Below are positions 9,216 through 50,967 of a DNA stretch of 64,000 nucleotides, piece after piece. A model generated the notes under the pieces. That model was not told where the DNA came from. It saw nothing but the letters and a program-made list of their open reading frames with translations, and searched no databases. Each line of letters begins with the position of its first letter. The first letter of the stretch is position 1. Source of the stretch: Botryllus schlosseri (Eukaryota); assembly GCA_051294905.1 (NCBI GenBank), contig CM119372.1, positions 36,644,001 through 36,708,000 on the forward strand, given 5' to 3'. Position numbers and translations under genes: made by a program.

Positions 9216-9836
9216 TATTTCCAAAGTATACTATCGAATTCTGTACAGTGTACAGTCTGTAAAAAATGTCATACCAATAATCATAGCATAAGTTACTATC
9301 GGCTGTGGTAGGCCCACGCCGATCATATGCGCCAACAGTTGTAGTAGTGTCTGAGTACAATATTTTCAGCTAATACCGCAACTGCGCGTCAGAACATCCA
9401 GTTAACACCATCTCAATACCAAATACTAGTGTACCTATAGCCAGCCCGGACCGCAGTCAACGCGAAGCCGATTAACTTTCTAGACACCTCGCTCGGCGGA
9501 TAACATTTGGCCGATTAAAATTCACCGATTAGTGGCAGATCGGTATCTGTGCCACGGAAGCCAGCCGATTACTGACGTTTAATCGGAGATTAGGGATTAA
9601 TCGACATCTGTGCAATCCACCCTAAGTCAGCTTAATTCCGAACTACACTAGCAGAAATGTGATCAACTTAATATCATGTTCAATTATACGCAAATGACGC
9701 GTAGGTCGACCTGGCTGGCGAACAGAATAGACTCAAGCTCATAATCGCGATAAATTGGTCTTAATACGTTTTGGGGTGAATATAGCCTACTTCGCAAGCA
9801 TAGGCCAGTTACAATTAAAAACGAGAAGTGTGACAT

Positions 9837-10123
9837 TGTAGCGTACCGCTCATTGATTACTCTGGTGCCCTGATTGATCATTCTCTAATTACCCTCGCTC
9901 TATCGCTGATTATGCCTCTATAGGCTACTCGTTGCTGTTGCCAACCTTTGTGTCGCAGTCGGCTTTTAGTCACCGTCCGAGGCAGTCGCTTTTAGTAACC
10001 GTCCGAAGAACATCGCCGTCGTTTTTTAGTTGTTTTAATAAAGGACTTATGCTAACGTCTCAACGTTATCTACACCGAGCCGCGGACCAAGAAGAACGCG
10101 CGCCCACGACAGAGCACGCTATA
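9837..10123 (+). repeat. 5' LTR
   Basis: No difference from 12302-12588 found by eye. Contains AATAAA. Confidence 0.95.
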
Positions 10124-10144: not shown

Positions 10145-12301
10145 TTCGCTAGCCATCCTAGCTGACGTGATTTCGCTATTCAACGTGATAGCTGACGTGA
10201 TCTTTTCGGAAATGCAGCGCGGTAGACGGAACTGCTGTAATGCCGCAAGATTGACCAGGATCAACGATGGAAAGTGATGAACTCACGGAACGCGAACACG
10301 AGTTTTGCACTGCCAAGATAGGAATCGTTAGTTTGTCTTCATGGATGCGGGATTTCAACGACATGGAATTCGGACCTTTCCACACGTAGGCCTACTTGCT
10401 TTGGTACGACGCTTCAACTCGGCGCCACTCAACGCGAATTGAACTGCTGAGCGAGCGGGATTGCTTCGATTGCTTCAGTGTCGGTTAAATTTTGATTGGG
10501 TACGCCATAGGCCCTACCGCTGATAGAAGACTCCAGAACAACTCCAATCTGCATGCAGAAGACTTCACCAAGTACAACTTCTTTTATCGATTGCAGACTT
10601 GCATGTTTGCAGCACGACGATGACATGATCGAGCCTTAGCACAGCGACTACGTACACTGAATTTTCTTCGCAACTTCATATCCGCGATCGCCCGACACCG
10701 ATATACTCGCTTTTCTACGTAGATATAGAAGCAGCTATGCTGTCTCACTACGCATTCCAACTGTAGAACGAAAGATGAGCCGAACGAAACTCTACACAAC
10801 CGACGGAACCATTATTCATGATGGGACCATGAACCGAATCGAATCACCTCGACATTGACAGAAACAGCGGAAATGCGCTCAAACGCAGATCCCCCCTTCA
10901 CTCACTCTTGTCGAGCGACGACTTGCAACTAACCTATCAACTTGATAGGTATATTCCGAATGAAAACGCTCTTCGTCTCAGTATTATGTGGCAGACGCTT
11001 CCGACTTTCTATTTTACATTACCCGCTCACGCATCCGAGAATCTACTAGACTTCCCACGGACCTTAACGACACGACTTGCGAAATATGGAGCACGACAGA
11101 GTTAATTCGTGCAACGTCAACGTGCTGGTCCAATAACGCTCGAAGTGCAATCGCAATGTAGGGATTCTCTTGATCCATTGCCAGTGTACTTGTCGAACAA
11201 TTCCGCTCCGTGATGTTAATAGACGTTCCCCTAGCAATATCTGCATATTCATTCATTTGTTCAATGTGCGTATTGACCGTTTTTCAGTCGACTCTAATGA
11301 ATTCTTATCGTTATTTTACGCCATCAGTCACGACTAGACGTTACATATCCCGAAACTGTTGTAAGGTTGATCATCACGTGATATGATATTACTAACTTCG
11401 ATTTATGTTAGCGAATTATGACGTCATCTCTTACGCCCAAAAGCTTTCGCAGCCCATACCTACTTGCGTACCGTATAGGATTAAACAACGCTTGTAGTCG
11501 CGCAATTCTAAAAAATCGCACTCACCGGTTACTCAAACTATACTTTTTCGCCATCGAAGCTCTGTATTGTGCATGGCACTTGAATGTGTTGCCTCGCCAT
11601 TTAGTGAATCCCTCTTGTAGTATTATTCACGATTCACTGCGATTGTACCGGCTGCACTAGTAAATCCAAACGCTCTTTTTCTGGGTTGTGCAGATTCCAG
11701 ATAACTTTCATTCGACTTGAAAATCACATGTCCCAAACGATTATACAATTACGCACACGTGCATTGAAATGTACATCACTCGATCCAGTTTATTCTGTCC
11801 ACATCAAGTTTTGATCCGCACTGAAATATTTTTTCACAATTCGAACGAATAACTGTCCGCATGACGTCTCAACCGATTGGCTTTGAATATGCCAGTGGCC
11901 GTATTATTCGTACCCCACGTCACTTGAATGATTTGTGTTGTCACCAGTAATTAAGATGGAAAATTACCGTTATACTCTTCGTCTTTTCCGTCATCACTTG
12001 TATTAGTTACGTTGAAGGCTTATTAATCTCTTCGTATGTCATTGTCATAAATGTCCATTATTGAGCCTTTCACACTGCAAAGTGCATATTTGTCGCTAAA
12101 CGCATCATTTTGTCGTTCATAGCTTTGCCACCACACCCACCTCGCTTTCGTTAGTTGTTAGAACATTAGTATTGTATTCGTGTCCGAATCTTAATCTGTA
12201 ACCACTACCGTGTCATATTTGTAGAGTACTTCACTTAGTAGTTAAATCGCTGTGTCTAGTTTCTATAATATCCTAAAGCTTTTACCAACCAGGGGGGCCC
12301 T

Positions 12302-12588
12302 TGTAGCGTACCGCTCATTGATTACTCTGGTGCCCTGATTGATCATTCTCTAATTACCCTCGCTCTATCGCTGATTATGCCTCTATAGGCTACTCGTTGC
12401 TGTTGCCAACCTTTGTGTCGCAGTCGGCTTTTAGTCACCGTCCGAGGCAGTCGCTTTTAGTAACCGTCCGAAGAACATCGCCGTCGTTTTTTAGTTGTTT
12501 TAATAAAGGACTTATGCTAACGTCTCAACGTTATCTACACCGAGCCGCGGACCAAGAAGAACGCGCGCCCACGACAGAGCACGCTATA
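12302..12588 (+). repeat. 3' LTR
   Basis: Direct repeat of 9837-10123, preceded by the purine tract and followed by the ACAT TSD. Confidence 0.95.
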
Positions 12589-20600: not shown

Positions 20601-22976
20601 TAGAAAAGCTGAGTTGATTTGGTAGATATGAGAGGTCGGCGAGTAGTAGAAAGGTGGATTTTGTGTCGACTCAATTCAATGTCTTTTCTATATATTTTAT
20701 TAATGTAAATATTACGCAGATACTACAGCGTTTTCTTATCAGCGCGTGGGATGTAGATACGCTGGTTAAAAGACCACCCTGAAACACTCCTCTCTGCTTC
20801 ACCTATTTAGGCATACCTTATCATAATATCATGCCGTCACATATGCAATGGTATCCACTACCCATTACCTTGTATTATATAAAGATCATAAAACAGATAA
20901 TAACATGAAATGAGTTGGAGAAGCGGAAACAAATTAGAATTGACATTATTGAAAAAGCCAAGACAACTAACAATACAATAAAATGAGGATTAAAAAACAT
21001 AACTGAGTGGATAATATTTCTCTGCAATGAGTAAACTATATAACCAATAGACCAAACCAAGAGCACCCAAATATCAACATATTACGGAAGTAAATACTGA
21101 GGTCAGCGGATTGCATGGATTTAGTGACAGAAATGTTTATGTAACAGTTATTGCACAGTGCTCAAGGATTAGGTTGGAATGATACTCTGCCTGGAAAGCT
21201 GAAGACATAACAATATTGTGTACAGAGAACAAAACATTTGAGTGGCTGCACTGGTATAGACATTAACAAATTATTAGGATTGACAGCAAGATAACCAACA
21301 AGACATTAAAATGACAATTAGTGCAGTTTCTTAGGCTGTAGTGATACTCAGCCAGGAAAGTAATTGACCTAACAGAGAGCAAAACGTTGTAAATAAAGCG
21401 ACAGTCTTACTAGAAGCAGAATAACTATCATGCGGGGTTAGAGAACAGAAGCCCGGGAAGTGACTATCAGAAATTACTGCATACTGGCCGAACAAATGCA
21501 TGACCACTAACAAATGGTCTTTTAATAGTCAATATTGATACCAAATGACACCACCCCTATTTCACCGCAACATTTAGAAAATACAGCGCTGGAGTCAACC
21601 AGAGCAACCTTATATAAGCGCTAACCAAATGCCCCATTAGTTTTCCCATCTACTACTTCGCGCTTCGCGGATGGAAATACGCATTGAAGCGAACGAACGC
21701 GACTTGTCACACTCTTGCAATTTCTGCTCCTTATTTCTCTTCGTTCCTCTTCTCTGTCGCGTTCGCTTGAGGAGAGAAACAGTCGGACGCGTTTACGGAT
21801 CGTGAATTCCCGGCTTGAGGGTGATTCTTCCTCCAATGGTCAGCACCTTGAAAATTGAGAACAATGTTGTTGTAAAATGCATGACAATTTGAAAGTTACA
21901 TCATTCTAATTATTCCAGTTACAGCCGTGAATCGTTACAAGTGCGGTAATCATAAGAATTATTACTATACTTCAACTACAAATACCATATATTGTATAAA
22001 ATAATTACCAATTCTTTTACGTTGATCAAGTCCCAAACAGATGAAATATGTCAAAGAATTTGGTACGATTTTTTGTATAATTTGACAGATTCCGAAATCT
22101 TCTCAAAGTGCACCTTTCAAAAATTTGATTTCAAGACTCCCAACATTTTACAATTCGAAATTTGATGGCTTTACCAATACAAGTGAACATTTTGTATCGC
22201 AATTGACAATTATGTAGAGAACGCTGCGAGACATGTGAGTAGGCCTACCCTAAAACGTTTCTCTGACATGGACATTAGGGCTCCTAAAAAATGACTTTTT
22301 TCCCAAATCGTTCTGGCTACTTGATAAAATTGTTAGGTTGTAAACCTAATTTAAGCCTACACACCAAATTTGGTTCAATTCCAACCCGTAGCCGCATTGC
22401 TACAGGAGAAGAAAGTTTCTATTTATTATATGAAAATAAATAGAAAAACTTTCAAAATTTTCTGTTCACCCCATGAAAGTGTTAGGCTATATATAGGAAC
22501 GATGTTCATCATATTTGGTTCGATTGCAACAAGTGTAAGCGGAGTTATTGCCATCGAAAAATTTGGATTTGAATAAAATAGTATTTACGGTAATATATAT
22601 AATTATATATAATACTATAACACTATAATACTATATAACACTATATTAAATAATTAAAGAATTGTGTCACGCTGTCATACTGTTTTACGCAACCGTTGTT
22701 ATACACTGCATACTGCAATGTTGCTGTGTTCTGGCTCCATTGAAGTTATTTCTAAATTCAACATTAATGCGTCATAATTCTTCATCTGGTTTTGAATTCA
22801 ACTGTTTTGCTTCCTTTATCGTGCCGGTAGCTCTTGATAACTGACACGCGAAAAGTTCTTTGGGTTTCAATAACGTTTATCATGAAGGTACTTTTGAAAG
22901 CAGTATTAAAATTTTGTACCACCAACCAGTTATTCAATTACTATTTATCTTCAAAGTAAATGCTCATTGCATGAAG

Positions 22977-23466
22977 CAGGGTTGTAATGACTCGAGTCAC
23001 GATTTTCTGTTGACTCGACTTGACTCAAGTCATCTTCTCAAAGTACGGAAATGACTCGAGTCAATCTGTGTATTGACTCGACTCATTGCGCATGACTTGA
23101 GACTCAGACGGCCAAGACCGACATTTCATGGTTATTTCAAAGAATAGTAGGCCTACAGTAAACCGCGATTGGGATTTCGTCTATTGATACTGGTATTTGA
23201 AAATGCGACCAGAAACTGCTAGAAGTAAGGGAAATTAGTATATTATAAATGCGACCCACTCGATATCACAACAAATATATAAAAAGTTGGTTTAACAAGA
23301 CTTAAATTGGAAACTGAGCAGCTAACACAATGACTTGGACTCGGCCCTCTGCTCGCTGACTTGGACTCGGACTTGACTCGGTGGTGAATTGAAAATGACT
23401 CGAGTCAAAACTATAAAAGTGAGATTGAATTGCGACTCGGAGCCTTGTGACTTGGTTACAACCCTG
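22977..23466. mobile_element. hAT-type MITE (GACTC/GAGTC repeat family)
   Basis: TIRs CAGGGTTGTAA / TTACAACCCTG, perfect TSD GCATGAAG. Other copies at 33008-33428, 44002-44563 and 49909-50444; partial copies at ~32600-32790 and 63941-64000. Confidence 0.9.
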
Positions 23467-23506
23467 GCATGAAGCCTCAATAGTTACATGAGTGGGGTGA
23501 CTAGAC

Positions 23507-24751: not shown

Positions 24752-25135
24752 GACTAGACAAAGAACACAGTCACATTTGCAGCATATCATGAATGTCTCT
24801 TAGTATATGTGATCTTGTTCAAATGGAGGTAGATGAAAGCGTATTTCCCATTCTTTCCGACTCTGCCATAATTACACCAGACACCAGCACTGGCAACCTT
24901 CTTCATGATGCTTTCTTGCTGACTGACCAATATTGTCGCCGCCAACGGTACTGAGTGCAAATGTCTGATATGTCAATATAGGAACAGAATTAGTTGACTG
25001 TTCATGACCGTCCACATTCAGAGTTGCAGCTCAAAGATGCTAAAATAAGCCTAAATATATTCCAAGCAATACATCTGATCCTCATAGCCATTTCTTAGAA
25101 AGCCTAGGAGTGGGCCGTGCTATTAGTGGGCAGAT

Positions 25136-26000
25136 GGTTGCCGGTGATCTCGGCACTTGGTGAATTCGGCTCTCGGGAAATGTTGTAATGAAATGTATTA
25201 ACAGTTATTAATATGAATTAATAAACTAATAATAGTATTATCAAGTGATTCGTCAATCTTGTAACGAGGTCAGGGCATCCGTAGATCACGCAGTCACGGC
25301 GTGATTAGATCACGGATTGCGTAGCCGCGGGAAATAATGCAGCGCTCGTATACCGACCACGCGCGGTCTGCTTGGAATCGATGGCGTGAGTGACGGGCGT
25401 GTGTTGTGTAAGTTTTGAGAAGATGGATCTTGTCGTTGTATGTGAGATCGGAGCTGTGGAAGCTCAAGCGGCGCTTCTTCGTTTATCGATCACGATGAGC
25501 CAGTGTTCCTCATCAACAAATGTTTTGCATGATCATGTCAAAATAAATTATTTTTTGCCTTTGGAGAGACGATTCCACTCTGGGGTTAGGGTGTCTCGAA
25601 AACAGGGTTGAAGGATTTCAAGATTACGAGATCTACCGCGAGCCACGACACGTTTAAATTTCCTTTTTGATAGCCTACTGTTCATTCATATTAAATGCAT
25701 TTCTAATGCGAAGGTGTTCTAGTGCCAATTCCTCCAAGGGTCGAGTTTACCAAGTGAAGAGCGTCGCGTTATTTCCCGCGATTACACAATCTGTGATCTA
25801 ATCACGCCGTGACTGTGTGATCTACGCATGCCCTGACCCCCGTACAACATTGACAACCACTCAAAGTGCCAAGTTCACCGGCAAACATTCCAGTAACCAA
25901 TCATGGTGACCGGTACCACTACGAGATCTACCATGGCCGAATTCACCAAGTGCCGAGTTTGTGCAGCCGAATTCACCAAGTGCCGAGTTCACTGGTAATT
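25136..26000. mobile_element. MITE with GG-start TIRs and internal inverted repeats (superfamily uncertain)
   Basis: Termini GGTTGCCGGTGATCTCGGCACTTGGTGAATTCGGC and GCCGAATTCACCAAGTGCCGAGTTCACTGGTAATT, TSD GGGCAGAT. An internal ~95-bp inverted pair lies at ~25252-25346 / ~25759-25854. Confidence 0.8.
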
Positions 26001-27200
26001 GGGCAGATACGGAATCATAATAATAAGAACCGGCCTGGTGTAAATGACCAGTGTAGTCGAACCACCACCATGAACACCACAAACAAACAAACAAACAAAC
26101 ATCTAACATGGAAAAGAAATTACATTTACAGCCTTTGACAAACACAGTTAACATTGAAACCAGCAATTTAGGTCTTATTCGAAAGCAGAATAACAACTGT
26201 TTTACCGGACATATCAAATCAAATGTTGGAAAGATTCATGTAAAATAGCTCAAAATATTATCTTACTGTGACCATATTCTATCAATTCTATCAATATATG
26301 GTCTGACTAGCCAAATTCTCTGGGCCAACATATACCAGCTGCGTTTGCTTTCAACGATTAATAATCTTGTCACTGGATTCGAGGTATAATTGCACTCAAA
26401 TATCAAATTTTGCTCCATTATTCAACATCAAGTTGAAAATGTCCATTCTTCCACCAACTTTTATCAAATCAGGATCCCAGTACCAAGGAAGGTAACCTAC
26501 GAATCAGCTACAGGTATGTATCTATATGACTTATATACCTATAGAAAATTCAAGCATAAATATCATGATAAAGGTATAGGTACCGGTAATTCAGATGTTT
26601 GAAGCGACATGGACAACTAGTGAACTAGATAATTCTAGTGGTCTAATTTCACTAAATTAGAGCGAAATGCCAGTAATGTAATTGTAATCTAATTCGGAAA
26701 AAACGGTTTATTAGCTCTAATACTAACCTGGAAAAGCTGAAACTTTTCCGAAGTTGTCTACGCCTGGTTTGAAGAAAGTCAAACGGCTCTAGGCGTCATA
26801 TACTACAGGCAATTCGAAATACCCCAAAAGCTATAAGCTACTGCATATATACCTTTTACCCGCTACCTCAGTCAGTCACAATTCCTATATATTTACGGCA
26901 TTTACCATACAGAAAGAGCGAACTATGCCTGGCTGCTACCTGTTGCACGTCAAATCTTTGTCCCGCGCGATGACGTAAAATTTGAATCGCCGAAATTTCT
27001 AGAAGTCACGCATCGATAATCATATTCCTAAACGTACAACATCTCACTTATTTAGTTATTCTCTGAATATTATCCATACTCGTTGAACATTCGAGATTAC
27101 CGAAAGAGCGAATATATATATATATAATGAAGATGAACAAGTGATTTGTGGTACAGAACTTCAGAATAACGCGAAACAATAACTTCATATTGTTAATTTA

Positions 27201-27240
27201 TTCGCTAAAAGCTTTTCGACTGACCCTCATAAGTAGCGAA
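27201..27240 (-). ncRNA. Hammerhead ribozyme copy with mutated core (CUUAUGA)
   Basis: Reverse complement of 27750-27789 except CTGATGA is changed to CTTATGA. Confidence 0.7.
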
Positions 27241-27414
27241 ACGTCAGTGATAGGGTGAATCAAATTCGAAATGTAAGAACTATTTTGTCTGTATGACGTA
27301 ATAATAACAAAAACAAACAACTAGTAGACGGGCAATATACGGTAGTAACGGTACAAAACAAACGTTAACGAGTACATATTCGGTTATAAATAACCGAAAA
27401 CACAACACATAACA

Positions 27415-27620
27415 TTAATGAAATATTCCAAGAGTGTAGAGGCGTTCCTTCTGGCGACAGAGAATCGGCTTTCGTAGCTTTATGATCGTAGATTCCAGGA
27501 CCTTTAAATGAAAAAGAGAACGGCCACGAGCAAGTATAGAAAATTGACTGTCATTGTAATGATCAGCACATTCTGGATGGGATAAGAGATGCTGTCCAAC
27601 AGCCGAATTACAAGCAGTAA
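27415..27620 (-). pseudogene. GIY-YIG endonuclease C-terminal fragment (Penelope-like ORF)
   Basis: S-A-x-x-x-H...F-S-I-L...L-E-x-x-x-I...P-x-L-x-x-Q pattern in ORF 27415..27735, 5'-truncated. Confidence 0.85.
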
Positions 27621-27749
27621 CTTGATCATAATCACGCATTGTGTCAACGATCGCACTATTTTGTCTGTATGACGTAATAATAACAAAAACAAAAAACAAA
27701 AAAAAAATAGTTTTTACATTTCGAATTTGATTCACCCTATCACTGACGT

Positions 27750-27789
27750 TTCGCTACTGATGAGGGTCAGTCGAAAAGCTTTTAGCGAA
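27750..27789 (+). ncRNA. Minimal type I hammerhead ribozyme
   Basis: TTCGCTA-CTGATGA-GGGTCAGTC-GAAA-AGCT-TT-TAGCGAA. This gives a 7-bp stem I, an intact CUGAUGA/GAAA core, a short stem II, a palindromic AGCU in place of stem III, and a predicted cut after 27782. Confidence 0.85.
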
Positions 27790-27829
27790 TGAATTAACAA
27801 TATGAAGTTATTGTTTCGCGTTAAAGTGT

Positions 27830-28172
27830 CTTTTCATCGCTGTCCAAACCCTATTGCTAGAGAGGATTATGAAGACTGTGAAAGTGATATCCAATCCCTG
27901 TCAAGTGATGATAGCTTCCACCCAACAGAGTTAGATGGCGAGTCAGAGTGAGTACTTGAACAGTGTAATCATATTTGTACCAAGTCTTCACCAAGATATT
28001 GATTTGCAGGCATTCAGATTCAGAGGAATGTCTGGAGAATAGCAAGAAGCTGGTGAGCATTTTTCAACATTGTCCAATGTGTCAATCAGAGTCGGACGTG
28101 CAAGAGTCTGGTTTAGGTAGCACACTGAGAATCAAGCAAGACTGCAGAAACTGCTCATACTCCAGATTTTGA
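27830..28172 (+). pseudogene. Kolobok transposase N-terminal part (acidic linker plus Cys cluster)
   Basis: EDYEDCESDIQSLSSDDSFHP, an intron, then LVSIFQHCPMCQS...GSTLRIKQDCRNC. Confidence 0.65.
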
Positions 28173-30772
28173 TTTACGGGTAGTGTAGATGCCGTTACAT
28201 CCCAGCAAACACCCGATATCCCGTGGAGTTACTGGTATGTCCACAATTGTTCCCACTCGTCCCACCTCCCACCCTCAGTCACGGAGGACTTGCTCAGTAT
28301 GCCCAAAATTGGACGTCAATTTATGTAACTCCAGGTGACTACCAGAGGAAGTGAGTTTTAGAATGCTCCTGTACCAGTCACCAATGACTATTCCAGTGGA
28401 TGTCATAATGGTATGATGCCTGGATGCCACCTACACAGGAGTTCGTCAGAATGTCCCTACTTGGAAATCGTTTCTATGAATTCAAGTGTGCATTGTGCAA
28501 TCAATGCAAAATAGTTTTCTGAATACACTCATGAATGTCATGATACATTTCACCATTTGTAATCTATCGGAGTGAATACGAGAATGTTGATTGATGATAT
28601 GGCGATGACTTTCTATCGCGCGGAACTTCAGAAGCCCGGCTATCGATGATCGCGGTCGCACATATGTACGATGTAGAGACATACGGCTATTTTATTGTGA
28701 CATTACTGGATCGAAATGTCCACATCAAGGCAAAATATATTATTTTAAATATACCGTATACCCAATGCATGTGAAATCTTCCGACATGAAAACTTGACAA
28801 CCGTAATAACGGTATGGTGATGACTATTCCAATCACGGAACTATACTCAGTCTGCCAGGCTATTATCGATAATTAAGGCCGCACTGCGCAGGAGGCCAGC
28901 GATAATGCATATGAGGCATTCCGATACCTGTCGAGTCTCGAGTGTCGAGCCGAGCACGCCTGTTGCTTGAAATTCATTCAACCATAAAACCAAAATACTC
29001 CGTTCTTCTGTCTGGCGAGCATTCGCGCGTGATTCGGTTTGAATTTGAAAGAACAGGTTTTGTAGTAATGGCGGAGTGACGGATTTATCACAGGAATGGT
29101 TTAGTTTAGAATAGCATACTCAACGGCGTGGATGGATTGTGCCTGCTATTGATTATTATTGATATTGTCGCTGTCATGAGTACTGGAAAGGCAGAGATCA
29201 TGGAAGCTTGGTATTTGAGTGCTATATTTATTGAACAGCAACAGCCTCGGTCATCATTAACTGCGATAACCGTAATGAATTTCACTATGATTCTAGTGGC
29301 ACGTCTGCGCCTCGGTTTATCATGTACGAACGAAACTAATCGACCCGCTGCTAATCGTAAACTTATGCAGTACTTGTAATACTATATAGTATAGCGATGA
29401 CGATGAGCATGATCATTGATCATGATAATATTTAATTATATGTAATCATTGAAGTTCGATTTGCAGCACAGTGGATTTCATGTTGTTGTAATATCCAACT
29501 TACTGTTTGATGTGTACGGTATATACTATGAAAAGTTTGACATGAATTTCCAAAGACTGGAAGAGCCATGCAGTAAACCAGATGCAGCATCGATGAATGT
29601 ATTATAGCCAGTCGTTAGGTTTATATAGCTACATAATTTGAAAGTGTATATTATAGGATGTTCCTTTACGGAATGTGAGATTGCTAAATTTGTGGCTGAA
29701 AACTATAGTTGCGCCTATGCTAATGAATATTAGCATCCCATTGACCGGCATGTATATTATCGTATTTGTTGTAATTTTGTGTTGTGTCCACAACAACATT
29801 AAAACCATTGATACTAGTCGAGGCTTTCGGTGAACATGTCAAAATGTATGGCTTTATTATTAGTTTAATGTTAGGGTATTCCAGGAACAATCATTATAGT
29901 TAACCCAACTTTAACCTCAGCCTAATTTAATGATACCCAAACGCTAAACCAATTATAAACTACATGGATTTTAACATGTTCATGGGGAAGACGGGTTGTC
30001 GCAATGTCGGCAATGTCGCCGTGCAACATACTTAAAATGCTTACTTATAACTTGCAATATAACGATAACTTATAATTTATATACATTTAACTTAGCTATA
30101 CGATATCTTGAAATCCCTGGTAAGAAATAGTAGTCGCAAAAATTATAGTCGCATTTAGCTCATTGGATATCTTGCACGTTCCTCGTCATATATATTATGA
30201 AAGTTTAAAATTGGTGAAAGTAGATAATTATTCCATTTGAATTTTCACTTCTTCTTGAACCTTGAGTTGACATTGATCTTTGAATATTTCGCCCATTACC
30301 TTCCAATAAGTATATTGCACGGAGACATTGTGCCAACATTCACAAAATATATTAACATTGCCTACATTACAGCGACATTCACAAAGTAGATGGGCCCTAG
30401 GGAAGACTGATTGCTTTGCTGATAGTCATGTTGTCGTGAATAAGAAAGCACACTATTGACCCTCATTATCAATGGATTCTTTATGCGGATGAGGCAGGGG
30501 CATACCTGGGTCTCCGTATACAACATTGCTTCATTTTTAGCAGGAGTCTAAATATGGAACAGGCAATGTTATATAGTACTTTTCAACTTTGGAGCAACGC
30601 ATCGTAGTCGTGCATTGTCCATGGATTAAGAACTTGAATCATGTAAGTTGGAGCGATGATTTATGATTGTTCATGTTCATTAATCAGCGATTTATTAGCC
30701 TGGAAAAAGTGTCATAAATGATGCGCAAATAGACTCTGTGACGTTGGTTCCCGATCAGGATTTTGCCAGTGC

Positions 30773-31916: not shown

Positions 31917-33007
31917 GAATTAATGTGCCAAGCTTGTACACCATTGTTTTTGTTTTTTAACAGGATGTTATGGATACCTGCCTTGAGTTCTTGACAAATG
32001 CCTTCACTAAAGCTACTCTAATCATGTAAAATTTCTAGATCGACAATGTCTTCAATTGAGGGCAACAACGTCAAGCTGGCTGTACAAAGAATGCCTTCTA
32101 GACTGGGGCCGACAACGTTTGGAAGAACTACTGCCACCTAGAACAAGCTTTACTTTTACTCTACAAAATTGGTGCTGCGCCATGCTCGGGAAAAACTAAG
32201 AAAGCAATCGAAGGTAAAAACGTTGAACACACTATATGGCAACCAGAGGTGGTCACAGTAATCATCTTTTGTACTGAAGTTGAAGTAATGTCATGAATTT
32301 ATTATACACACATAGATGTAACAAGTTACAAGGTGTGTCAAATCTATTTGAAATGGAAGTCGAGAATGAAGTTCTGGAATATGCTCTAGTAATTACTTTT
32401 AAAAAGTAGATTTGGTCGATGTGTTGCATACGATTGCCCGACATATGAGCATGCGACACAATGGAAAACGACAGTTAAGCATGGAACACTTTAGCATGCG
32501 TCACTTCAGTATGTGACTTCATAACCCCAAAACTAACCCAAAACATAACACTGAAATTAACCACTATAAGTGAGGAAAATTAGTAGGGTATATTTTGAAT
32601 GAGAACCATGGATTCCATATCACCAAACATAGTTATAAAAAGAGGGTTAACAAGGCTTTAACTGGAAACTGAGCGGTCAACACAGTGACTTGGACTCGGA
32701 CTTGACTCGGTGGTGAATTGAAAATGACTCGAATTGACTCGAGTCAAAACTATAAAATTGAGATTGACTTGTGACTTGGTTACAACCCTGCGTCGTAGGT
32801 GCATGCTTCTGAACAGAGATGGTCAAAAACGTAGTTGTTTTCAGCACTCAAGTAGAAGTAATTGTTGTGTCATCAATGGAGTAGAAGTAGTAGTAACACC
32901 ATGTATTTCCACTCTGGTACAAGCAGTGATTTACAAGTCTTGTCCAAACTAATTTATGTGAAAGTGTAATTTCTGAAAAGTACTCAAGTATGTACTTTAG
33001 ATGTTTC

Positions 33008-33428
33008 CAGGGTTGTAGCCAAATCACAAGTCAATCTCACTTATATAGTTTTGACTCGAGTCAAGTCGAGTCATTTTCAATTCACCACCGAGTCAAGTCC
33101 AAGTCAGCGAGTATAGGGTCGAGTCCGAGTCATGGTGTTATGACTCAAGTTCAACCATTTCGTTGACTGCTCGGTTTCCAGTTAAATTCTTGTTTAATCC
33201 ACTTTTTATAACTCTGTTTGGTGATATCAACGTTTCGCATTTATAATATAGGCTACTGATTTTTCTCACCTTCAACAGTGTCTGGTCGCATTTTCAAGTA
33301 CCGCTACCATTAGATGAAATCGGTCTTGGCCGTCTGAGTCTCGATTCATATGACTTGGTCCGAGTCATTACATAGATTGACTCGAGTTATCAGAAATCGC
33401 AACTCGACTCATTGCAATTACAGCCCTG
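33008..33428. mobile_element. GACTC-family MITE
   Basis: Termini CAGGGTTGTA and TACAGCCCTG, TSD GATGTTTC/GGTGTTTC. Confidence 0.85.
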
Positions 33429-43800: not shown

Positions 43801-46800
43801 AAGAGAGATACCTGACTCGAAACCTTGATACTCTATTCAAAATCGCATGCCTCCGGTGCCTAGTCCTACTCGTAAGCCTGTGACGTGGGGTTACCACTAA
43901 GCAACCCATGTTACAATATGGCCGGAGTAAAATCGGATGCCCTTCCTGCCATGCAACCCAGGCAGCACTGGTTTTGTTCGCCAGTGCGGTTTGGCACAAT
44001 GTAGGGTTGTAATCAAGCCACTAGAATCCGAGTCGCAAGTCAATCTCGCTTTTATAGTTATGTCTCGAGTCCAGTCGAGTCATTTTCAATTCACCACCGA
44101 GTAAATTCCGAGTCCAAGTCGGCGAGCAGAGGGTCGAGTCCGAGTCATGGTATTATAACTCGAGTCCAAGTCTAAGTATAGTGTTGACTGCTCAGTTTCC
44201 AGTTAATGTCTTGTTAACCCACTTTTTATAACTCTGTTTGGTGATATCGAATGGTTCGCATTTATAATAATACTAATTTCCCTCGTTTTTAGCAGTTTCT
44301 GGTCGCATTTTCAAGTACCAGCAACAATAGACAAAATCCCAATAGTGTGGTTACTTTACTATTCTTCAAAATTACAATGCAATGCCGGTGTTGGCCGTCT
44401 CGAATCATATGACTTGGTTCGAGTCATGCCAGATGACTCGAGTCCAAGTCGAGTCAATACACAGATTGACCCAAGTCGAGTCATTTGCGAATTTTGCGAA
44501 AATGACTCGACTCAAGTCGAGTGATCAGAAAAGCGCGACTCGAGTTGAGTCATTACAACCCTGAGTATGTAGCCTTGACCGATTGGTCGTCCGTCTCACA
44601 GCACACCTAATAGGCTGAATTGTAGGCTACTACAGATCAGAGGTGGTCAAGGTAGTCAAGAAAGCTACTCAAGTAGAAGTAGTGACGAAAAAATCTATTC
44701 AAGTACAAGTAGAAGTACTTCCATAAGCCACCCAAAACTACTTGAAGTAGTAGAATTAGGTGACTTTAAATCTACTCATGTAAGTAAGTAGTTTTTCAAA
44801 CATGACTGTCAAAAGCTGCAAATTGAGCTACACGGAAGGTGCAGAGAGCTAGATTCGTGTTGATGCATCCCAGGAGGTATCAATTTTCGACTTAATAAGC
44901 ATTTGTCCGCATCATGGGATTATAGTATTGATATGAAAATGCGATACGAGTCCTTTGTTTACTAGAAAACCCCGTTTTAAAGAATATCATGGCATGGTGC
45001 CCTACCCGATATTATTAGGCCCCAAAGTTTAGGCGAAGAGCAATACGGAGAAGTTGTATCGGATACGGTTTCAACACTTTGCGCGATTAGTATACGGTAA
45101 TAACAAATATTGTGGATAGTAAAATTTATATTTAGTGTAGCTTTTTTTTCGGAAAATGTAGACATTACTACACTTGTTTTTAAGCTTCAACATGTGTGTT
45201 CTGCAGACAAAAAAACTGAAAGTAATTAGAACTCAATGTATGATACTCGGAAATGAAGGTGAAATACAAATACCACTTCTAAAAAGCGGAAAATATATTT
45301 CATGTCTTTTGTCCATAAAGCTTCAAAGGTGATCTGCTAAAACAGGTGTAACGTTAAAAAAAGCCGGATTTTCTAGATTAGCAGGACACGTCATGGGCTG
45401 CTAGATTATGATATGAGAGATAAGTGCTAGATTGCAAAACGGTAGTTTCAAATGTTTTGGTGAGCCATATTTACTGTGATGAAATATTTGATATGGGCGA
45501 CAATGTGGTGTGAGCGGAACCATGCAATCCGGTACCTAAATTATATTCACTGATACTTTCGTGAAATCATATTTGTCACTCCATAACTATTGTGCGCGAA
45601 GCGCAAAAAAATTTCTGGGCTTTACTTGACGTTTATGAATATTAAATGTTGGTACTCCGTGAAAACAGCCCTGAAATTCCTCAGGCTTTTTTCGTATTGG
45701 GGGGGGGGGGGGTTGAACTACTTCTACTTGACAAACTGAAAATAGCGAGAAGTAAGTAAGTAGATCACAAAATATTAAATAATAGAAGTAGTGAAAATCA
45801 GATCTACTTGAGTAAGTACCAGAAGTAGAGGAAAACTACTTGAGTACTTCCAAAAAGTAGAAGTACTTCGTTACTGACCACCTCTGCTGCAAATCTACTG
45901 GCATTTTTGGGAATGACATTTCTGTTAGGTCATAATCAACCCAGAGCATTTACACTTGAGTGCAATGACATGGGTTTTGGGTGTGGTCGAAAAGTACTAA
46001 ATTAACTTTGATGAAACGTAGATCTCATGAATTGTACGTATTTGAACTTTCCTCGTCATTTTCGATGTCATAATAGGGGGAATCTCGAACACTTGACTTG
46101 ACTTGACTTGAAGCTTGATACTTGATTCATAATTGAATCACTGAGGTACTCCGTTATGGCGGCAATGCTCACCAGCAACTAGGTCGATATCGGCCAGCTG
46201 AGTCTATATCGGGTGTCATAGCAGCGTGAATGACTAGTGAAGTTCAAATATATATTGCTTTTTGCTGAAATAATGTTGGTTACACACTAAAAGTAATCTT
46301 TTACTTCATGATCATAAGATGTCCTCATAAACATGTTCGTGAAATGTCACACTGAAATGTTGTTCCTGTGAATAACTGTAGCTCTGTGCAGACTGTTTTG
46401 GTAGCTGAGAAGCAACCAATCAATGAAGGTTTCACGGCTCCCAGTTTTAGAACTATCATCATTCTTGCTTAAACTCCATGTGTTGCCAAGTGCCTGTAAA
46501 ATTTGTTACTCTAAAAAATGATGACTCACTTAGACTGGAATCCCTGAGAATTAAGATTGATGTTTGCTACTGTGCCCAGTGCCAGTCATCCACGAAAACC
46601 ACAATCATATCATCTCGCTTTGCTACCATGCTTCAGTTCGGCCACAGAGATGTCGTTTCTAATGAATATCCATTGTGTTACAAGGTGTCTTATTATGCGC
46701 TGTACGTGTTATCAAGAGCTGTTGATCAAAACTGCTTTGCGCAGAGTATTTACAAATTGCTGACAATGTGCATATATTCTAGTTCAGGGGGGTCAAACTC

Positions 46801-49908: not shown

Positions 49909-50444
49909 CAGGGTTGTAACCAATTCACAAAGCTCCGAGTCACAAGTCAATCTCACTTTTATAGTTTTGACTCGAGTCATTTTCGATTCACCACCGAGTC
50001 CAAGTCATCGAGCAGAGGGTCGAGTCCGAGTCATGGTATTATGACTCGAGTCCAAGTCATGATGTTGACTGCTCAATTTCCGGTTAAAATCTTGTTGAAA
50101 CCAACTTTATAACTATGTTTGGTGATATCGAATGGTTCGCTTTTATAATATACTAATTTTTCTCACTTTTAGCAGTTTCTGGTCGCATTTTGAAGTACCG
50201 GTACCAATAGATGAAATCCCAACATGGTGGTTGCTTTACAATTCTTCGAAATTACAATGAAATGTCGGACTTGGCCGACTGAGTGTCGAGTCATTTGACT
50301 TGGTTCGAGTCATGCGCAATGACTCGAGTCCAAGTCGAGTCAATACACTGATTGACTCGAGTCGAGTCATTTCTGTATTTTGAAAAAATGACTCGAGTCA
50401 AGTCGAGTCATCAGAAAATCGTGACTCGAGTCATTACAACCTAG
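49909..50444. mobile_element. GACTC-family MITE, fifth layer
   Basis: Termini CAGGGTTGTAA and TTACAACCTAG, TSD GATAAAAC/AATAAAAC. Confidence 0.85.
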
Positions 50445-50967
50445 AATAAAACTGGTATCAGTCGAAAGCTACCGCGGTAGTGATTGCGAAAATAAAGATT
50501 TTGTTAACCTCGTATTCTTGGAACCCCCAAAATCAGCCTCGAATGTTGCATTGTAACGGAGTTTGGTATTGTGATGCAACCATGCCGTCTGAGCAGCTCA
50601 GGATCAAGCGCGCACGAGAGTGAGAGTGTGAATGCTTAATTGGTTGCGCAACAAAGGCCAATGCGCTTGCGGGTTGCTCACCTGCTCTCAGACGGCATGG
50701 CATGGTTGCGTGACAATACCAAACTCCGTTACAATGCAACATTCGAGGCTGATTTTAGGGTATTCCAGGACGACGAGTAGAATAAAATTCGTATTTTCGC
50801 AATCAATACCGCGGTAGCTTTCGATTGATACCCGTTTTATCAAATGTAATGCTCGGCCATCCGGTCAAAAATTACTGTCAAATTGCCTTTGACCAAATGG
50901 AAAGTGTGACGTAGACCAATTTCACCGAGCCGTGAGATTTGCTTGTTTCCACCCACACCATATAGGA

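Follow-up and report, generated by a model that had tools for sequence, protein, structure and literature searches.

Introduction

The role of hammerhead ribozymes in Penelope-like elements (PLEs) is debated, these ribozymes having been described as minimal, weak and devoid of tertiary contacts or, in the available text of PMC6155905, of tertiary interactions. A locus within a 64,000-nt stretch of Botryllus schlosseri DNA (hereafter the window, from whose first base all positions are counted) raises the question in a pointed form, as it carries two hammerhead motifs on opposite strands, one intact and one mutated. The original prediction held that the sense copy was dead, and that the intact inverted copy could still cut plus-strand read-through RNA. 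Here, we ask what kind of insertion this is, how its ribozyme is built and whether either copy could act where it lies. The overall reading that we regard as probable is a decayed EN+ PLE insertion whose active relatives carry a ribozyme that uses a pseudoknot-stacked one-base-pair stem II together with a same-sense dimer partner.

Results

Element family and layout of the locus

The locus at 27134–27823 is a 5′-truncated, non-autonomous insertion of the Penelope/Poseidon type that has decayed neutrally, and it holds the last 77 endonuclease codons, a pLTR, a 33-bp tail and an inverted pLTR copy. Its minus-strand frame matches P0003, an 850-aa RT-endonuclease protein, at 98% identity (18 matches among 27 candidates), with positions 27648–27415 corresponding to the last 77 residues (75/77 identical). 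The Penelope-like origin that had been proposed is borne out by this match, together with the pLTR, the tail and the inverted copy. P0003 matches RVT_1 above the cut-off and GIY-YIG at residues 728–756 of 850 below it (E 0.007); a single ORF combining RT with a C-terminal GIY-YIG endonuclease is found in the family, as represented by P0003, and not in the stub at the locus. What had been called a GIY-YIG fragment does stem from the endonuclease domain, but it comprises only the C-terminal 77 residues, contains neither the GIY nor the YIG motif and yields no Pfam match on its own. The P0003 endonuclease, inspected by eye, has the CCHH residues and no CX2-5CxxC linker zinc finger before them, and C736 and H793 are invariant in 18 aligned relatives. 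CCHH residues without a linker finger fit, by visual comparison of the residues, Penelope/Poseidon in Figure S2 of PMC8557442, a source available to us in part. This family placement rests on motifs, the RT tree covering only unnamed relatives. An assignment to Naiad was ruled out, the endonuclease piece ending in the ORF stop and following the RT in P0003.

The copies compared came from sequencing runs and from metagenome loci, of which the best 80 among 427 confirmed related ones were used. In runs X13 and X14, contigs of 2808 nt close on themselves with a 30-nt overlap and define a head-to-tail unit of 2778 bp, in agreement with the sum of 2553 and 225. The family contigs of run X1 break into mixed, unrelated flanks exactly at 27134 (at least 27 contigs) and at 27167 (at least 17 contigs), and the 33 bases between these two ends are the PLE tail. 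The insertion at the locus uses both usual family ends, the sense end with and the inverted end without the tail. Organisms B and C (runs X13 and X14) show the same nine substitutions and one gap relative to window positions 27134–27648, and the element family is near-identical across three organism labels.

To the left, a short (AT)n run and seven bases of a different repeat (27112–27133) lie outside the element, as seen from the X13 and X14 contigs, which track this flank up to 27134 and then diverge into other sequence; the element start, earlier placed at 27122, is corrected to 27134. The tail (27134–27166, minus strand) equals ORF nt +23 to +55 and is present at this end only, in line with the X1 contig ends. 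The first 18 codons of the ORF (27135–27188, minus strand) encode residues identical to the start of P0003 (18/18). The sense arm of the inverted repeat (27167–27286, minus strand) is the 3′ part of the pLTR, and the non-coding spacer from the ORF stop to the next ORF start (27189–27414, minus strand) consists of the 3′ UTR and the hammerhead-bearing leader. The last 77 ORF codons plus the stop, representing the C-terminal half of the GIY-YIG endonuclease, occupy 27415–27648 (minus strand), where 27648 is the 5′ truncation point behind which family contigs continue into the ORF. Read on the minus strand, the order of endonuclease end, hammerhead-bearing spacer and ORF start is that of a head-to-tail unit junction. 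The inversion junction (27649–27703) is made of a 6-nt filler, a 43-nt copy of 27279–27321 (at 27655–27697) and six A, and is followed on the plus strand by the inverted pLTR copy (27704–27823), which has no tail and ends at ORF nt +22, with the ATG at 27802.

A target-site duplication (TSD) was not found, the longest word common to the two 30-nt flanks being 3 nt, and the flanks are not neighbours in other contigs or reads, each running on into other sequence; the site may therefore be deleted or rearranged, or the insertion may join two repeats. The right flank (27824–28400) is a transcribed repeat present in multiple copies; its frames are broken, and one of them has a weak zinc-ribbon match (E 0.01, below the cut-off).

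Several further repeats were observed in the window. At 25134–25998 lies a separate element that resembles a non-autonomous DNA transposon: its inverted repeats are long but imperfect (96 nt at 86%, with additional shorter arms), and it also contains internal repeats. A 288-bp direct repeat of 100% identity (9836–10123 and 12301–12588, 2.5 kb apart) could stem from a local duplication or mark both termini of a young element. One dispersed repeat of 300–560 bp occurs at 22977–23467, 32564–33321, 44003–44560 and 49910–50441 in copies that are 70–82% identical, a 395-bp imperfect palindrome lies at 50446–50840, and a tRNA-like match below threshold (28 bits vs 47) at 22315–22393 is perhaps a tRNA-derived repeat.

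The two hammerhead motifs

The plus strand carries a complete type I hammerhead with an intact core at 27750–27789, confirmed both in the sequence and by a descriptor scan, in which it was the only match in the window (200 shuffled windows gave none at a stem I of at least 6 bp and two at a stem I of at least 4 bp). Stem I is formed by 27750–27756 and 27783–27789, and between its strands follow the core CUGAUGA (27757–27763), G10.1 (27764), a 1-nt linker (27765), six bases that serve as the 3′ strand of the pseudoknot described below (27766–27771), C11.1 (27772), GAAA (27773–27776), the palindromic AGCU (27777–27780) and UU (27781–27782), with the predicted cut at 27782/27783. A type III reading of the motif was ruled out by eye, there being no room for a stem I hairpin. 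Pattern searches of viral contigs gave 16 and 47 matches, none of which was confirmed.

Its twin on the minus strand (27201–27240) differs inside the 40-nt motif at one position only, G5 (27231), as had been noted. The arms, previously put at ~115 bp, measure 120 nt each (27167–27286 and 27704–27823) and differ at three places rather than one, namely at G5 and, on the right arm, at 27713 and 27791. G5 is the family state, found in 93% of X1 contig depth, in the main X13/X14 contigs and in 9/9 RNA read letters, and the G5U change, as judged from these copies, is private decay of the sense copy. As changes of G5 cut hammerhead activity more than 100-fold (PMC4075628, available in part), the copy on the ORF strand is probably dead, in keeping with the original prediction. 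The right arm that had been called intact has itself drifted at its two other sites: at 27791, 7/7 RNA read letters and most X1 depth show the left-arm state, and at the mirror sites of both 27713 and 27791 the X13 contig has the letters of the left arm. The chance that one of three differences over 120 nt falls in the 13 core positions is ~0.29, so the asymmetry between an intact and a mutated copy needs no special cause.

A pairing between the leader and loop II

The segment between CUGAUGA and GAAA of the plus-strand hammerhead is 9 nt long. Its apparent loop II hexamer (27766–27771) pairs with a hexamer of the leader just 5′ of stem I (27742–27747, plus strand), the proposed 5′ strand of a 6-bp pseudoknot helix, which is followed by a G in all families compared. 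This pairing leaves stem II a single G-C pair (G10.1-C11.1). On the sense copy, the strands mirror those of the right copy (27243–27248 with 27219–27224, minus strand). In H-type pseudoknots, a single base is able to span the deep groove of a 6-bp helix, and the one-nucleotide linker found here would fit this.

The 6-bp pairing is shown, by comparison of homologous copies, to be maintained across relatives. Related loci carry the hammerhead ~100–200 nt after the stop, built as core, G, one base, hexamer, C and GAAA, and A9 is followed directly by G10.1 in 6/6 families (9-nt segment). Six pairs for the hexamer were found in 6/6 families tested, five with all Watson-Crick pairs and one with a G-U, ending 7–11 nt before the core, while the background of the same six-pair match elsewhere in each locus was 0.04–1%; the tested families are 49–64% identical over the C-terminal 260 residues. 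When leaders were swapped between families, six Watson-Crick pairs formed in 2/30 combinations, both exchanges being between a pair of families whose motif is the same, and a further 4 of the 30 gave five pairs plus a G-U. Within the family of the locus, positions 27245 and 27222 (mirroring 27745 and 27768) switch together from G-C to A-U in the X13/X14 contigs, and among 44 distinct copies of a large related family six pairs are present in 33, five in 9 and four in 2.

In eight aligned sequences, in which the gap from the pseudoknot strand to stem I is 1–5 nt, 48/48 cells pair and 5/6 pairs change on both sides, in an alignment that was started at the pseudoknot strand and so leans to the structure, and whose rows represent ~5 lineages. 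The covariation score was reached by 0/500 shuffles, and slid partners were 17–46% paired. The most distant locus, L075, in which the segment is one base shorter, was left out of the alignment and has 4–5 pairs by eye. The description of the motif as a minimal hammerhead is incomplete, as it missed the covarying pseudoknot, stem II being no plain short hairpin. The pseudoknotted build also explains why Rfam misses these motifs: the search that had been suggested as a check gave no hammerhead at E ≤ 1 in the window or at E ≤ 10 in 27100–27900, and Rfam hammerhead families gave none at E ≤ 10 in seven related loci.

Proposed fold and limits on activity

Active members would most likely fold as a type I hammerhead in which the one G-C pair of stem II stacks on the 6-bp pseudoknot helix, the helix presumably having an activating role. 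A second same-sense copy would be needed to build stem III via the palindrome, as the literature on such ribozymes suggests, and the ribozyme would then trim tandem transcripts, or cut them, 19 nt upstream of the start codon. Cleavage would probably be slow because the site is UUU, a poor hammerhead cleavage triplet. UUU is the family state; U17 also occurs in several published PLE motifs (available part of File S2 of PMC8557442) and in the large related family, where 42/44 copies have it.

Other features may limit activity further. The palindrome extends to 10 nt here, with a predicted dimer over-pairing into the core (−10.1 vs −4.3 kcal/mol), and can also pair with itself according to fold prediction. 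Nested folding of the 120-nt arm, by a program that cannot model pseudoknots, buries the core in another hairpin, with a stem I probability near 0. The largest related family (L003, L007, L057 and similar) has a U3-G8 core in 32/44 distinct copies, with a few C3-G8 and U3-A8 copies, and so spread without a canonical core. By analogy with another PLE (PMC11167929, available in part), cleavage may be slow or need protein.

The same observations could be read differently: the covarying helix might keep the ribozyme inactive as a folding switch, or serve to bind a protein, with the active form using a 2-bp stem II. This alternative stem, which competes with the pseudoknot for one base, pairs in 15/16 cells, a value reached by 75/500 shuffles, and at its second pair L027 has a C-A mismatch while its pseudoknot is intact. 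Predicted folds do favour core-sequestering hairpins, in 5/7 families base pairing of a leader segment with the core is also possible (−3.6 to −4.8 kcal/mol), and ribozyme activity was not needed for insertion of another PLE in vitro (PMC11167929, in its available part). Against a switch, the pseudoknot helix does not engage G10.1-C11.1, stem I or either core box, and its length of six together with the single closing pair matches tested activating pseudoknots, as far as the available text of PMC3088659 and PMC11300833 covers them. A 1-bp stem II with a 6-bp pseudoknot is reported there to be fast and to be rescued by compensatory mutants (PMC3088659), and a crystal structure exists for the PK hammerhead (PMC11300833). 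We consider the switch improbable and prefer the activating pseudoknot.

Directly after the hammerhead, matches resembling the histone 3′ stem-loop were observed in two related PLE families (L004:1319–1365, L004:1385–1420 and L027:152–198), at 27–28 bits against a gathering score of 34 (E ~3e-4).

Comparison with known hammerheads

The comparisons that follow cover the available parts of the sources cited. The window motif is like the minimal type I hammerheads of metazoan PLEs (Cervera and de la Pena 2014, PMC4209133) in its type I form, its location in the pLTR and its core, and has G10.1-C11.1, a palindromic stem III region and opposite-strand pairs a few hundred bases apart in common with them. 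However, the published PLE hammerheads are described as lacking tertiary contacts and as having a long helix II and an additional base behind A9 (PMC4209133; PMC6155905), whereas in the window motif G10.1 directly follows A9, the local stem II is 1 bp (at most 2) and a pseudoknot reaches to the 5′ leader. With the PK hammerhead (Zhan et al. 2024, PMC11300833) and the hammerheads of Perreault et al. 2011 (PMC3088659), the motif has in common the single G10.1-C11.1 pair, a 6-bp pseudoknot helix that replaces helix II and a partner strand located 5′ of helix I. Unlike the PK hammerhead, it has neither helix IV nor the AUA4 linker/triplex, and a G plus 0–4 bases join the partner strand to stem I; its stem III is the short PLE palindrome and its host an animal retrotransposon, in contrast to the PK hammerheads compared. 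By analogy, the window form would work like a PK hammerhead but is not a member of that class, helix IV and the triplex being absent.

In the literature searched, we found no description of a pseudoknot in PLE hammerheads; one may already be shown by Lunse et al. 2017, where leader-to-loop II contacts are reportedly common in earlier hammerheads and short-stem-III hammerheads are said to be treated as well. The word "pseudoknot" is absent from the available text of PMC6155905 and PMC7229834 and from one supplement file of PMC4209133, the rest of whose supplement may show one, and no PLE pseudoknot is described in the examined text of PMC10085705, PMC6765202, PMC6466107, PMC5737381, PMC2377424 and a 2026 retrozyme preprint. 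According to the legend of Figure S4 in the available part of PMC3088659, Perreault et al. left highly repetitive type I hammerheads out of their pseudoknot stem-length panels. The insertion layout and dimer-type PLE hammerheads are already known; new is the covarying pseudoknot.

Origin of the inverted arm

The sources cited in this section were likewise available in part. A PLE tail, an inverted pLTR and an ORF start inside the pLTR have been described before (PMC3846280; PMC8557442), as have copies without TSD (PMC3846280) and opposite-strand hammerhead pairs 100–700 bp apart (PMC4209133). That insertion can leave such an inverted pair behind is known, and the locus neatly illustrates both RT start sites within one insertion. 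It resembles published EN+ PLE insertions (Arkhipova et al. 2013, PMC3846280; Craig et al. 2021, PMC8557442; Frangieh et al. 2024, PMC11167929) in its 5′ truncation, AT-rich neighbourhood and head-to-tail unit, and in a pLTR reaching into the first ORF codons, a tail at one end (33 bp here, 30–40 bp published) and a shorter inverted pLTR. It differs from them in having no TSD, a 43-nt templated patch at the inversion junction and no direct 5′ pLTR. Among the best 80 of the 427 confirmed related loci, a hammerhead on both strands was found in nine, corresponding by eye to ~7 distinct insertions, as L014 and L019 are the same and L010 and L036 have common flanks.

In a PLE studied in vitro, two RT start sites bound the tail, and extension takes place on both target strands (PMC11167929). 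At the locus, both target strands would likewise have primed cDNA on the element RNA: priming at ORF nt +55 would have given a long cDNA with the tail, priming at ORF nt +22 a short cDNA that became the inverted arm, and the two cDNAs would have been joined head to head via a short templated patch and A/T microhomology. Alternatively, a single cDNA may have folded back and primed itself, or repair at a later time may have produced the inverted arm. PMC3846280 favours self-priming, and the junction holds the 43-nt patch, the start of which is complementary to the start of the inverted arm. However, the end of the arm coincides exactly with the second common family end (27167 equivalent). That position is an RT start site in the PLE studied in vitro (PMC11167929), and a fold-back product has no reason to end there. 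In related loci either arm can carry the tail (by eye), which also counts against fold-back. We therefore regard fold-back or repair as possible yet rather unlikely, and favour priming from both target strands, by which both hammerheads would be passengers of a duplicated pLTR, neither being likely to act at the locus.

Fate of plus-strand read-through RNA

This leaves the proposal with which we began, that the intact inverted copy, as an active antisense ribozyme, cuts plus-strand read-through RNA, whereas the sense copy was lost. On the right copy the core, stem I, palindrome and pseudoknot strands are all intact, and a transcript starting inside the right arm would escape duplex formation. 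An initiator-like YCANT motif lies 2–9 nt before the pseudoknot strand in 7/7 families; the motif at window positions 27740–27744 and its equivalents in L002, L004, L023, L027, L057 and L075 may be an initiator or a core-pairing segment. Against the proposal, the arms are predicted to form a 120-bp duplex in read-through RNA, consistent with the earlier suggestion that they could fold into dsRNA, and this duplex would hide the motif (predicted arm-to-arm pairing 0.98; mean pairing probability of the motif 0.97). Transcription reaches the left arm before the motif, with which this arm then pairs, and cutting of such RNA is therefore unlikely. In addition, the 64-kb window contains no same-sense dimer partner for the plus-strand motif, and the other copy, being antisense on plus-strand RNA, cannot serve as one. 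The drift of the right arm at two other sites and the chance of ~0.29 for a core hit among three differences also weigh against the proposal.

RNA reads point the same way, as weak evidence. In run X24 the element family is present (635 reads, ~6% of the run; mate directions about equal), and at 27225/27765 none of the 36 RNA letters, with mates counted apart, matches the locus variant, in an animal that may lack the insertion. No read pile-up marks the RNA ends that had been expected at 27782/27783, nor do ends accumulate at any other place, in this one bulk library, read to ~6% and poorly suited to detecting them. At 27240, twelve RNA reads carry loose letters; they mix adapter and family variants and were not taken as RNA ends. 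We judge antisense cutting at this locus to be very improbable and retain the view that both motifs are passengers.

Discussion

The inverted pair itself matters little. What extends beyond the locus is the covarying pseudoknot, which shows, as far as aligned copies can, selection on the full ribozyme fold across families that are ~50–60% identical in protein. As a tentative proposal, which we hold at less than even confidence, a whole subclade of animal PLEs has a compact hammerhead not described before, in which a pseudoknot takes over from stem II and stem III is a palindrome that depends on a dimer, with the pseudoknot strand following the likely transcription start. If so, the ribozyme would fold only in certain transcripts, the pseudoknot strand sitting just after that start, and PLE hammerheads judged nearly inactive can be efficient once the 5′ leader is included. 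The pairing singles out the 10–15 upstream bases that any assay has to contain, and the pseudoknot would, on the same proposal, provide a clean on/off mutant pair for testing what PLE ribozymes do.
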